From a virus (Duplodnaviria; Caudoviricetes), in the IMG/VR virus record IMGVR_UViG_3300029288_000092, positions 1 through 64,000 of that record: a stretch of DNA of 64,000 nt; one strand, given 5' to 3'. The position numbers and the translations under genes are program-made. Shown piece by piece: positions 30,030-57,553 of this stretch (position 1 is the stretch's first letter; each line of letters opens with the position of its first letter). The notes under the pieces are model-generated. The model did not search any database and was not told the DNA's origin. It was given only the letters and a program-made list of their open reading frames with translations.

Positions 30030-30045
30030 TTATTTCTCTGTTATT

Positions 30046-30153
30046 TCACGTATTGATTAATGATGAGGAATGGATAACTTCTAGACTCAGATTTTCCAAT
30101 TTCCTCCACTGAAATTTATTGGGATATATTCTATATTTGAATGTTTTTATCAT
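30046..30153 (-). pseudogene. 35-aa N-terminal stub of a second TnpB
   Basis: Manual translation MIKTFKYRIYPNKFQWRKLENL... with AAGGAG RBS; FKYRIYP..Q is the canonical TnpB/OrfB N-terminus. Confidence 0.75.
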
Positions 30154-30280
30154 TGTAAAATAAAAATCTCCTTTTTAATATTCAAATTTGTATTTGTTTA
30201 TTGAAAAACAAATGTATGTTTTTTCATCAGTTCATCCACGGACTCACGTCCGTGGTTTTCCCGATTGGTTTATAAATGAA

Positions 30281-30313
30281 AAAAAAGAGCAGAAGAAATT
30301 ATCTCCTGCTCTT
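30281..30313 (-). terminator. Intrinsic terminator after the 1548-aa fibre gene
   Basis: AAGAGCAG...CTGCTCTT hairpin with T-run on the minus strand. Confidence 0.7.
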
Positions 30314-30329
30314 AAACAATAATATAAAA

Positions 30330-51053: not shown

Positions 51054-51203
51054 ATGTTGATCTGGTTATTATTAAAAATATCATTGGCCTCTTTGTTTTT
51101 ATTATTGATAGCAAAAACATATACAAAATTTTTCAATATACCAATTATGAATTTTGACAAAACATATTTTGTTGATTCTAGATTGGTAGAAATAGCTGGA
51201 TAA
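51054..51203 (+). CDS. Small membrane peptide (49 aa)
   Basis: GAGGTGG RBS; MLIWLLLKISLASLFLLLIAKTYTK...; followed by hairpin AGCTGGA..TCCAGC and a T-run. Confidence 0.55.
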   Translation: MLIWLLLKISLASLFLLLIAKTYTKFFNIPIMNFDKTYFVDSRLVEIAG

Positions 51204-51250
51204 CTCCAGCTTTTTATTTTTAACATATAAAGGAGGAAGTATAAAGTGTA

Positions 51251-52072
51251 ATGAAAAAAAAGAAATACTTTATAGGATGTGATCCAGAAATAAGATTTAA
51301 CTACGACAAATATGAAATTGAATATCATTTATCAGGAAAACACATAGGGCACGATCATTGTAATAAAATAATTGAATTTAGACCTGATGCGGGGAAACCA
51401 ATTCAAGTCACTTCAAATATGGCATATCTTGTTATGTTATTCAAAAAATTTGTTAAAAAAGAAAATTATGATTTATTTTTGACCGGCGGAACCGGATCAC
51501 CATCCACCGGTGGCCATGTTCATTTTGATTATGGAAGTGAAGAAATTATAAACAGAACAATAAATATTATGGCTAAATGGAGCAACAAATTTAATTTATT
51601 AAGAACTGAACCTGGAAGAGATTCTAGGGAAAAACAAGGGTATGGAAATTATTTAGATAAAAGAATAAATGCTCCAACCAGTTTTGAATGGAGAGCACCT
51701 TCATCTTGGTTGAGTGATCCAAGGTGGACGTATTGTATGTTAACAATTGGTTGGGTGGCAGAAAAAAATCTGGATACTTTTGAAAAATCATTAGATTCGT
51801 GGAAAAAACACATAAGACACATAAAACAATATTTAACGGCAAAAGAATGGAAAATGTTTTATCCATACTATAATATGTGGTATTCATACGCAAATAAAAA
51901 CAAATATCTTCCAAATTTTATAAATATCGATAAATGGGAAGAATGGTTGAAAATAGTTCCAGCTAAAATAAAATTTATTTCTAAAAAGGCATTAGAACAA
52001 AATGAATTTGAAATAACGTATTTAATAAATAGAGAAACTGGAAAGTCTGTTCTTGTAAAAAGCAAAAAATGA
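51251..52072 (+). CDS. phiEco32-like COOH-NH2 ligase type 2 (amidoligase)
   Basis: IGCDPE, IEFRP, GGHVHF, R..QGYG, FEWRAPSSWL motifs; AGGAGG RBS. Confidence 0.85.
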   Translation: MKKKKYFIGCDPEIRFNYDKYEIEYHLSGKHIGHDHCNKIIEFRPDAGKPIQVTSNMAYLVMLFKKFVKKENYDLFLTGGTGSPSTGGHVHFDYGSEEIINRTINIMAKWSNKFNLLRTEPGRDSREKQGYGNYLDKRINAPTSFEWRAPSSWLSDPRWTYCMLTIGWVAEKNLDTFEKSLDSWKKHIRHIKQYLTAKEWKMFYPYYNMWYSYANKNKYLPNFINIDKWEEWLKIVPAKIKFISKKALEQNEFEITYLINRETGKSVLVKSKK

Positions 52073-52094
52073 TTTGTGAATCAGATTGGAGGAA

Positions 52095-52556
52095 AAAATC
52101 TCTAAAATCCAAGATTTTTTTCTCAGTGTATGAAGGGAGAAATTATATGACACGACCGTAGTTAAGTTAATTTGTGTTTATTTATTAAGATTTTATAGAG
52201 ATTATTTATTTGCTATGTCCTAACATAGCTATTTCAATTGCTTATTTTTACGGACTCATATCCTTTTAAGTAGTGTCTATGGGTTTTGTAAAAATAAGTT
52301 GTTATGACGACCGAAGGTCATAATAATATCCTGAAAATTGAAATAGGCCCGTTCCAGCCGAGACAAATGGAATACAATCATGTGAGTTTTAGACGAGGTA
52401 CTTATCACATGAATATACACTATTGGGTTTTAAGTGTATATGGTTGCACCTTGTAAGTGATGTTTTATTGGTTAATATTAGAGTACAAAATGACACTTGC
52501 CGTTATTCATGGATGCATTTATATTAGCTACCCATGAAGATTTATAATGGTGCAAG
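52095..52556 (+). ncRNA. Candidate large structured non-coding RNA (family not identified)
   Basis: Nested stems: 52097-109/52189-203, 52212-229, 52229-239/52336-346, 52240-260/52278-299, 52302-323, 52378-385/52405-412, 52413-421/52433-441, 52444-450/52549-555, 52506-512/52532-538. No ORF of 60 aa or more. Confidence 0.6.
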
Positions 52557-52609
52557 GAGAAATTTTCCAAAATATGTATTTAATTTTAAATTGATTGACA
52601 GGAGTTTTA

Positions 52610-53395
52610 ATGTGTAGAATTTTATTGATTAAAGATCTACAAAATTGGTCAATAGATAACCAATTATTGGAAGATCTCGATTACACCCAAGGAGGGGATG
52701 GAATAGGAATGGGGTGGTTTGAAAATGGAACACCAAAGAAAGTTGTAATTCCTATTTCTTCAACAAAACATATGGTCAATGCTGCAGTTAAACACTTGAC
52801 CAAATTAAAAGAAAATGGAATACAACAAATTTTATATCATACAAGAATGACATCAAGAGGTGCAAAAAACTTAGATAATATTCATCCATTTTTAATTAAT
52901 CTTGGTCCTCCAATGAATAAAAAGGCATGGTTCTGTCATAACGGAACCATTTCATCCGTTGGAAAAATAAAGGACAAAGAAGGTGAATGGAGTGACACAC
53001 GAACATTTGCAAAAATGTTAAATAGTCTTCCATGGGAAATAATTAAAATGAATCTGGAAGATAACCCAAACGAAACATTTGTGCTGTTAAACCAGGACGG
53101 GGAATTCATGAAGTTTCAAGAAAGAGTATATGATGGAAAAAGAATAGTAGATACTGAAGGACCAATAGAACATTCCCCAACCAGAATAGTTAATAATTCA
53201 AATATATCATATGGTTATAATAGCAGCGTGTGTGACCACTACAGAGATGACTATTATAAAAATGGAAGAAATATTTTTCCATACTCATCATCAAACAACA
53301 GTGGGAAAAAAGAAAATACAAATATAAATCATTCCAATGTAAATAACAAAAATGGAATTGATGATGATTATAATTGGCATGATGCATTATATTGA
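52610..53395 (+). CDS. Class II (Ntn) glutamine amidotransferase
   Basis: True start MCRI (ATG 52610 after AGGAG) gives the N-terminal Cys; DGIG, HTRMTSRG, NIHPF, HNGTI and SDT motifs. Confidence 0.9.
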   Translation: MCRILLIKDLQNWSIDNQLLEDLDYTQGGDGIGMGWFENGTPKKVVIPISSTKHMVNAAVKHLTKLKENGIQQILYHTRMTSRGAKNLDNIHPFLINLGPPMNKKAWFCHNGTISSVGKIKDKEGEWSDTRTFAKMLNSLPWEIIKMNLEDNPNETFVLLNQDGEFMKFQERVYDGKRIVDTEGPIEHSPTRIVNNSNISYGYNSSVCDHYRDDYYKNGRNIFPYSSSNNSGKKENTNINHSNVNNKNGIDDDYNWHDALY

Positions 53396-53435
53396 ACAAA
53401 TTTTCAATGAATACTAAAAATTAACGGAGGTTTGT

Positions 53436-53840
53436 TTGTTTATTGCATTTGCCGATCAATCAAAAAATTCATTCCAAGACATAACTAAAATTTGCAATAT
53501 TGCAAAAATGAATCTAGAAAGAAATGGAGTATTATCCGATTTCTCGTTGGTGAAAGAAAATAATTTTATAAAACTCGAATTCTTATGTTTCAATCCCAAT
53601 ACATCTGAGGAAGAAACAAGTCTTTTGTTTTTAACAGAAATAAATCTTCTTGGGTTAATTGATGATAAAAAACATAAAGAAATCGTCTTATCTTTATCAA
53701 ACAGAGATAAAAAATATGAACTAAGAAACTTGAAGGAAATAGAAAATAAATTAAATGATTTTTTCAATTTTCACATAAACATAAATAAATTTTTATTGGA
53801 GAACACCATAACAGAAGAAATTGAAAATTACGCATATTGA
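53436..53840 (+). CDS. Hypothetical protein
   Basis: GGAGGT RBS before TTG; terminator GAGTGAGAA..TTCTCACTC-T8 at ~53886-53913. Confidence 0.65.
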   Translation: MFIAFADQSKNSFQDITKICNIAKMNLERNGVLSDFSLVKENNFIKLEFLCFNPNTSEEETSLLFLTEINLLGLIDDKKHKEIVLSLSNRDKKYELRNLKEIENKLNDFFNFHININKFLLENTITEEIENYAY

Positions 53841-53924
53841 TTTCGTATATTTTTGCGGTTGCGTGTGATAAGCGCTACGTTATTTGAGTGAGAAAATTCT
53901 CACTCTTTTTTTTGTCCAGATTTT

Positions 53925-57270: not shown

Positions 57271-57430
57271 TCACATCCTTAAGTTTACAATTTAGACATT
57301 CTTCTACGGGGACAATTTTTTCCTCTGTATGATATGTGCATACAATATATTCATATTCTTCTTCATCTATACTCATAGTTTTGATATTCAATTTACTCTT
57401 AAATATTTTACAAAATTTACAAACACCCAT
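57260..57430 (-). CDS. Small zinc-binding protein (56 aa)
   Basis: Manual: MGVCKFCK...VCTYH...ECLNCK..., with GGGGGAG RBS. Confidence 0.65.
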   Translation of the reverse strand: MGVCKFCKIFKSKLNIKTMSIDEEEYEYIVCTYHTEEKIVPVEECLNCKLKDVIDD

Positions 57431-57553
57431 GACATACTCCCCCTTATCTACAATATTCTTCTAGCCCTTTGGGTTTGAAAAGTATATCCTTTGTGTTTGT
57501 TCTCCATGTTTTTGAAAGAGGAGAATCTATTTAGATTCTCCTCTCCAATAACG

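Follow-up and report, generated by a model that had tools for sequence, protein, structure and literature searches.

What fills the 537 nt (52073-52609) that separate a COOH-NH2 ligase (amidoligase) gene from a class-II glutamine amidotransferase (GATase) gene in an uncultured phage, and how might it serve the enzymes on either side? We explored this question in a window of 64,000 nt, the opening 64 kb of an IMG/VR virus record of 119 kb (31% GC, CheckV completeness 38%; the full record is labelled G000). The genes of this pair, cassette A, lie in a short plus-strand island with minus-strand genes on either side, closed by an intrinsic-terminator-like hairpin (Table 1). Another terminator-like hairpin with a T-run (51194-51211, +) lies shortly 5' of the ligase start, after a small plus-strand ORF (51054-51203), so that the ligase may have its own promoter. 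An initial annotation had placed a large structured RNA in the gap, at 52095-52556, and had proposed that it was either ROOL/GOLLD-like or new.

Results

The gap is non-coding and matches no Rfam family

With translation table 11, the gap contained no ORF of at least 60 aa, and no plus-strand frame crossed it entirely when TAG was read as glutamine or TGA as tryptophan, the sole long TGA=W frame (52457-53488) being the GATase frame read upstream. Frames that crossed the gap with TAA read as glutamine lay on the minus strand only, carried 7-14 recoded stops and ran into the flanking plus-strand genes, and were rejected as spurious. The initial annotation had named a decayed ORF among the outcomes that would refute it; none of the four codes gave a reading frame.

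Neither a tRNA nor a tmRNA was present at the gap, and ARAGORN found no tRNA anywhere in the 64-kb window. Scanning of the window with Rfam covariance models (cmscan) gave no match at the gathering score; at E ≤ 10 only noise was seen in the window or its homologs (snoRNA and miRNA models of 10-19 bits at positions 51900-52800), and at E ≤ 1 the homologs and the type-B gap described below gave no match. ROOL and GOLLD RNAs often lie beside tRNA genes in phages or prophages. With neither a covariance-model match even at E ≤ 10 nor neighbouring tRNA genes, membership of ROOL (RF03087) or GOLLD (RF01998) was rejected; that half of the initial proposal falls, and the other half, a new RNA, agrees with the absence of any Rfam family. 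A group I intron (RF00028) was rejected as well, with no model match at E ≤ 10 and no interrupted gene. There are no exons to join, because the ORF on either side is intact and has a stop, Shine-Dalgarno sequence (SD) and start of its own, in line with the earlier remark that tRNA and intron hallmarks were lacking. The glutamine riboswitch (glnA RNA, RF01739; Downstream-peptide RNA, RF01704) gave no aptamer-model match at E ≤ 10. Since a large structured phage RNA stands here beside glutamine-using enzymes, a diverged group I intron, ROOL, GOLLD, glutamine riboswitch or T-box could be imagined; given the Rfam results, the complete flanking ORFs and the lack of tRNA genes nearby, we regard such a descent as highly improbable.

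Mimicry of rRNA was discarded on the lack of similarity to E. coli genomes, and a second copy or DGR-like template was discarded too, the element being single-copy in the 119-kb record. Iterons and tandem repeats were absent from the region, and complements of the conserved loops were absent from the rest of the genome. Elsewhere in the window, 30030-30329 and 57271-57553 are further stretches of at least 250 nt without ORFs of at least 70 aa; one of them may be the other RNA candidate of the initial annotation, and in relatives the region of 57271-57553 holds small called genes (51-65 aa), one of them Hc1-like.

The gap is kept in a few related phages

Protein searches with both flanking genes recovered very few relatives. 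Two lineages, one represented by loci L002, L003 and L004 (gap 551 nt) and the other by L006 and L020 (gap 541 nt), had the same synteny, and a third, L018, was covered over the first 334 nt of the gap. The ligases of L002, L020 and L018 were 64-69% identical to that of the window, with an equivalent gap after each; the GATase orthologs were 70% identical to the window copy, and in L002, L003, L004 and L006 the element was followed by the GATase gene. With the window, the known family thus comprises four metagenomic lineages, three of them informative for the 3' domain. The linkage that the initial annotation had suggested looking for in other phages was found for both the ligase and the GATase genes in the L002 and L006 lineages and for the ligase in L018; phiEco32 has no such gaps.

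Wider searches added little. A blastn search of 50,697 phage records gave no match; tblastn with the ligase gave none either, and tblastn with the GATase returned weak, unrelated GATases only, while a HMMER search of 1.84 billion proteins with the GATase found close relatives in just one further cluster. When the two most conserved loop motifs, those of P4 and P5, were scanned for in IMG/VR, JGI metagenomes and GTDB genomes, no further true members emerged, and the extra motif matches (L009-L017, L021-L040, L045-L051) failed nhmmer or our covariance model R1. Ten unrelated IMG/VR contigs among them (L021, L024, L026, L027, L029, L031, L032, L034-L036) carry an identical 29-nt P5-loop match and nothing else of the model, which is probably a gene common to these contigs that overlaps the P5 motif by chance. 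Within these searches, the element occurs once per genome, always between a cassette-A amidoligase and a GATase, and is confined to a single clade of uncultured jumbo phages.

Two observations concern the GATase side of the locus. A 3.8-kb contig in a public MAG bin (L007; NCBI GCA_023228325.1, JALOBK010000026.1) bears the GATase-to-ThyX segment of the phage, the protein sequence of its GATase part is identical to that of the window, and the bin is a possible hint at the sample or the host. In an ENA contig of the L006 lineage, a gene for pyrimidine-dimer excision that resembles T4 endoV (PF03013) has been inserted directly behind the GATase; this insertion is present neither in the window nor in L002.

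Covariation and G-U pairs support a plus-strand RNA

The plus strand of the gap folded to an MFE of -131.2 kcal/mol; dinucleotide shuffles averaged -109.1 ± 6.8, which gives a z of -3.24, and none of 100 reached the observed energy. The folding z was about -3 in three lineages. The minus strand also beat its own shuffles (z -5.19); since both strands fold better than shuffles, folding energy alone can tell neither the strand nor RNA from DNA.

Covariation carried the decision. Independent MFE folds of the four lineages gave the same 5' domain. A MAFFT-based consensus of the 3' domain was discarded because the window was mis-aligned, and stems were extended outward from the invariant loops in each lineage (loop-anchored stems) instead, which gave perfect stems. 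A model-based alignment that covered P4, P5 and part of P6 had a standard pair in every one of its 90 cells, and 15 of the 19 pairs had changed on both sides, compared with 4.7 ± 1.6 in shuffles (none of 500 reached this value) and 0-4 when partners were slid. RNAalifold found compensatory change in 29 of 67 pairs over the whole gap. Nucleotide identity was 52-61% in the stems and 3' domain, 65-79% in the flanking coding DNA and 69-85% in the P4-P5 core; variable stems with a conserved P4-P5 core are the pattern expected of a folded RNA and not of a decayed gene.

The strand was read from the conserved helices. Of about 100 loop-anchored pairs, 9 were G-U on the plus strand and none was an A-C mismatch; examples are the base pair of P4, which is G-U in three lineages, and three U-G pairs in P3 of L002, and P2 of L006 holds three further G-U pairs. 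Read on the other strand, these anchored G-U pairs would be A-C mismatches, which argues for a plus-strand RNA. This reading is supported by the G-U pairs and by the plus orientation of both flanking genes. The G-U argument made in the initial annotation therefore holds on the conserved helices, but folding energy by itself would not have justified the choice of strand.

Taken together, covariation in four lineages shows that the gap holds a conserved multi-domain structure of plus-strand RNA. A DNA-level element (replication origin, packaging site or protein-binding palindromes) could account for the AT-rich composition, the many inverted repeats and the better-than-shuffled folding of both strands; it would sit poorly with stems that vary in sequence but remain paired, next to invariant single-stranded loops, the signature of a folded single strand, with G-U pairs tolerated on the plus strand only, with the lack of iterons or tandem repeats and with a site inside a co-oriented operon, and we consider it very unlikely. 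Hardly credible, for its part, is a decayed gene or chance folding of an AT-rich spacer. Low-GC genomes do yield many chance hairpins, and one stem of the window (TTGCACC/GGTGCAA, see below) looks like one, but the substitutions are pair-preserving rather than codon-like, the gap has no reading frame, and its length is kept at 64-70% protein identity.

Architecture of the element

The conserved structured part spans approximately 52212-52568, slightly offset from the 52095-52556 first put forward, and consists of a junction domain (H0, P1, P2 and P3), three hairpins (P4, P5 and P6) and a 3' domain (P9 and P10) (Table 1). Four apical loops, those of P2, P3, P4 and P5, are near-invariant.

Table 1. 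Positions of the cassette-A genes, of the elements of the folded gap and of the type-B gap (window coordinates, except in the last row).
Feature	Position	Strand	Remarks
COOH-NH2 ligase (amidoligase, cassette A)	51251..52072	+	Pfam PF14395, E 1.2e-08; own stop codon 52070-52072
11-mer AAATCCAAGAT	52105..52115	+	two copies only in the 119-kb record (52105, 103692)
SD-like GGGAG and mini-ORF (ATG ACA CGA CCG TAG)	52135..52161	+	read from the sequence
H0 hairpin	52212..52229	+	7 bp, loop CCTA; from the fold; L002, L006 and L018 have a hairpin of other sequence here
P1 long-range helix	52229-52239 with 52336-52346 (span 52229..52346)	+	perfect 11 bp; closes the junction holding P2 and P3
P2 long hairpin	52240..52299	+	G-U pairs, perfect 11-bp base; apical loop with conserved YCCUUWAA
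P3 hairpin	52300..52326	+	conserved 8-nt loop RWCCGAAG (52309-52316)
P4 hairpin	52351..52373	+	6 bp; conserved loop RCCGAGACAA(A)
P5 hairpin	52378..52412	+	8 bp; conserved 19-nt loop GUUUUAGRCGAGGWAYUUA
P6 hairpin	52413..52441	+	9 bp, inverted repeat; L002 and L006 have 11-12-bp hairpins of other sequence here
TTGCACC/GGTGCAA stem	52444-52450 with 52549-52555 (span 52444..52555)	+	window-specific
P7 (tentative)	52498-52505 with 52545-52552 (span 52498..52552)	+	candidate arms, stacked under P9
P9 hairpin	52506..52538	+	7-bp stem around AUGCA...GCUAC; anchored stems
P10 small hairpin	52556..52568	+	GGA/UCC pairs; SD-like AGGAG
GATase SD (AGGAG) and start codon	52600..52612	+	read from the sequence; (C/U)AGGAG in L002 and L006
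Class-II glutamine amidotransferase (GATase)	52610..53395	+	Pfam PF13230, E 1.7e-06; Met-Cys start
Intrinsic-terminator-like hairpin closing the plus-strand island	53886..53905	+	8-bp stem, then T8
Type-B gap	G000 103677-104315 (L041:2305-2943), outside the window		639 nt, no ORF; between amidoligase B and the putative ATP-grasp-like gene

The 11-bp long-range stem and the long G-U-containing hairpin inside it, both pointed out in the initial annotation, are present as P1 and P2. The window arms of P1 (CTATTTCAATT/AATTGAAATAG) form a perfect inverted repeat, whose inner 7 bp (AUUUCAA/UUGAAAU) are replaced by compensatory changes in L002 (AGATCTG/CAGATCT), L006 (AGATTTG/CAAATCT) and L018 (AGATCTT/AAGATCT). 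P2 is the same long interrupted hairpin in all four lineages with differing stem sequences, the three G-U pairs of L006 falling in one 8-bp segment. The anchored P3 stems measure 11, 6, 6 and 3 bp by lineage, all canonical or G-U, and the junction of L002 has one extra small hairpin. P4 keeps 6 bp in each lineage, and each of the 6 pairs has been substituted in both partners; P5 keeps 8, 8, 8 and 7 bp, with such double substitutions in 7 of 8 pairs.

In the 3' domain, P9 has a 7-bp stem in each of the window, L002 and L006. Both partners have been substituted at 4 of its 7 positions, and the L002 and L006 versions of the loop enclose an additional hairpin. The GGA/UCC pairs of P10 are invariant in three lineages and hence show no covariation. 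The candidate arms of P7 are UGCCGUUA/UAAUGGUG in the window, UCCGAA/UUCGGA in L006 and UCCG/CGGA in L002, with an alternative register in the latter two lineages. The TTGCACC/GGTGCAA pairing, read initially as the stem closing a multiloop, exists in the window, but it overlaps the P7 candidate and no equivalent pairing was found in L002 or L006; the conserved 3' architecture consists of the P9 and P10 hairpins instead. Candidate kissing loops or pseudoknots (P2-P5, P4-P5 and P3-P4) were favourable in some lineages and showed no consistent covariation.

Upstream of the structured part, an SD and an ATG followed by 2-8 codons occur at the equivalent site in the window, L002, L006/L020 and L018; the peptide is not conserved, and the mini-ORF may be functional.

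A second amidoligase is followed by its own folded gap

A profile search of the same record with the ligases revealed a paralog, amidoligase B (G000 102873-103673; 39-42% identity), which is followed by a gap of its own (type B, Table 1) with a folding z of -4.09. The next gene encodes no GATase but a protein of 249 aa; its look-alikes according to a protein language model are viral RimK-like ATP-grasp proteins, which we take as a lead only. Orthologous B cassettes were found at L043/L053 (gap 595 nt) and L019, loci recovered from the samples that also yielded L002 and L006, and this shared origin indicates that each of three lineages has both cassettes, that is, all three with enough sequence.

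Type-B gaps align with one another, and 27 of 60 pairs covary. Their 3' end is a covarying terminator-like hairpin (GGAGGTGAC/GTCACCTCC; in L043, GGATGTGA/TCACATCC), placed before the SD of the putative ATP-grasp-like gene. Homology between the two types was not detected, as model R1 does not match type B and Smith-Waterman scores were not above those of shuffles. The common features are two short ones. The 11-mer AAATCCAAGAT stands 19-33 nt past a ligase stop codon in each of its copies and is kept in the type-B lineages, but not in the other type-A lineages; the second is a P9-type hairpin (~103912-103945; 7-bp stem, loop GAUGC-N9-GCUAC), an instance of a module (7-bp stem, loop RUGC...GCUAC) with only about 2 other matches in 239 kb, both strands counted. 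The linkage of RNA and enzyme genes, conserved across lineages, is thus mirrored at the second amidoligase cassette, and a second folded gap behind the other amidoligase suggests that these RNAs work with the enzyme cassettes.

The gap 5' of amidoligase B measures approximately 435-455 nt (G000 102409-102863, or L044:2409-2875; L043:7567-8000; L019:629-1060) and holds a block of about 30 nt (AAAAAGTACATATATTA...TTGATAGG) that hardly differs among three lineages. Its core, TACATATATT, occurs 7 times in the record, including window positions 141 (-) and 10709 (+), mostly in A-rich intergenic DNA, and may be a phage promoter consensus.

Discussion

Is the element a control device of its own operon or an RNA with a task elsewhere? 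We give a probability of about 0.45, slightly below even, to a cis-acting intercistronic regulator of the downstream partner enzyme. The RNA would be transcribed as part of the ligase-GATase message and would set, in cis, the amount of that enzyme made; binding of a pathway metabolite or of one of the enzymes might be the trigger, and a rearrangement of SD-like and anti-SD-like segments might be the switch. Consistently with such control, the element lies directly upstream of the GATase SD on the same strand, the linkage is conserved, and gap size and synteny are kept in L002/L003/L004, the L006 lineage and, as far as its partial sequence reaches, L018. An SD with a 2-8-codon mini-ORF near the 5' end recurs in all four lineages, and the element contains several SD-like segments (the mini-ORF SD, GAGGAA in the P5 loop and AGGAG in P10) and one anti-SD-like loop (UUCCUU in P2). 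The paralogous cassette B supplies a further argument, since a covarying terminator-like hairpin just before the next ribosome-binding site fits an attenuator-type leader. Cis control is harder to reconcile with the dimensions of the element, as ~360-470 nt with four conserved loops is far above the size of known attenuators and riboswitches, and with the absence from cassette A of a conserved terminator or SD-sequestering helix: an unstructured A/U-rich stretch surrounds the GATase SD, and CUGYA forms only a weak 5-bp pairing with the start region.

Size also speaks for a stand-alone large "ornate" ncRNA that would act in trans, excised from the operon transcript or separately transcribed within the operon, and serve as scaffold, cofactor, decoy or substrate for amidoligase-type enzymes or a host target; in that case co-inheritance and co-expression, and not cis control, would explain why it sits in the operon. 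The multi-domain architecture and the long invariant loops (8, 10-11 and 19 nt) are nearer to large ncRNAs and ribozymes than to leaders. Each paralogous cassette keeps its own large RNA in the three lineages with enough sequence, the otherwise rare RUGC...GCUAC hairpin module is common to both RNAs, and the type-B terminator-like hairpin could define a discrete 3' end. Moreover, the archetypal cassette of phiEco32 works without such a gap; its gene spacings of at most 80 nt imply that the RNA is a component added in the jumbo clade and is not required for operon expression. Against action in trans, no promoter or defined ends were identified, the RNA is single-copy and confined to one rare phage clade, the loops show no consistent loop-loop complementarity suggestive of oligomerisation, and the genome holds no complements of the conserved loops elsewhere. 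On balance, we see an RNA acting in trans as the main and a serious rival, somewhat less probable than cis control. A more specific proposal, that the RNA is a dedicated partner of the amidoligase (scaffold, specificity guide or even substrate) and that each cassette is an RNP modification system with a cognate RNA, is in our view doubtful. To our knowledge, the pairing of an RNA with COOH-NH2 ligases has never been described.

Amidoligase/GATase/ATP-grasp cassettes are widespread in phages, and here a rare jumbo clade keeps a large RNA fold, maintained by selection, after each of two amidoligases. Were the regulator that we favour to be confirmed, it would represent unusually elaborate intercistronic control and could reveal a metabolite or protein sensed by the pathway; an enzyme partner would instead amount to a new kind of RNA-protein system and offer a handle on the enzyme targets. 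On either reading, the few known large structured RNAs of phages gain one more family, in which well-defined helices can be mutated and invariant loops probed.

Comparison with known systems

Judged by its sequence and covariation, the element represents a new family of RNA, and its link to enzyme genes is an unusual setting. A large structured-RNA screen of IMG/VR reported motifs of 29-151 nt and required at least three IMG/VR regions (PMC10690425); it will probably have missed the element, of which IMG/VR contains no other copy.

ROOL and GOLLD are phage-associated, multi-domain RNAs of several hundred nucleotides and unknown function that were recognised by covariation (Weinberg et al. 2017, PMC5737381; Kretsch et al. 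2025, PMC12286853). The element likewise measures several hundred nucleotides, is multi-domain and was recognised by covariation, but it is smaller (core ~360 nt), lies between two enzyme genes of one operon, and shows no sequence or structure match to them, no adjacent tRNA genes and no evidence of self-assembly. It shares its size and its site inside a phage gene cluster with phage group I introns (RF00028), yet it interrupts no gene and does not match their model. With leaders and riboswitches such as the glutamine riboswitch and the T-box, it has in common its position on the same strand and directly 5' of an enzyme gene, SD-like and anti-SD-like segments, a leader mini-ORF and, in type B, a terminator-like end. 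In contrast to the glutamine riboswitch, it is at least 5 times larger and has no Rfam match, and in contrast to leaders it is placed between cistrons rather than at the operon 5' end, with no conserved expression platform found in cassette A.

Known counterparts of the enzyme genes are the amidoligase/GATase/ATP-grasp cassettes of the phiEco32 type (Pfam PF14395), reportedly described by Iyer and colleagues in 2009. Both have a COOH-NH2 ligase, a class-II GATase and a RimK-like ATP-grasp protein as neighbours, if the language-model lead for the type-B neighbour is right. The genes of phiEco32, however, are no more than 80 nt apart, whereas the phages studied here have two cassettes and a structured gap of 540-640 nt after each ligase.
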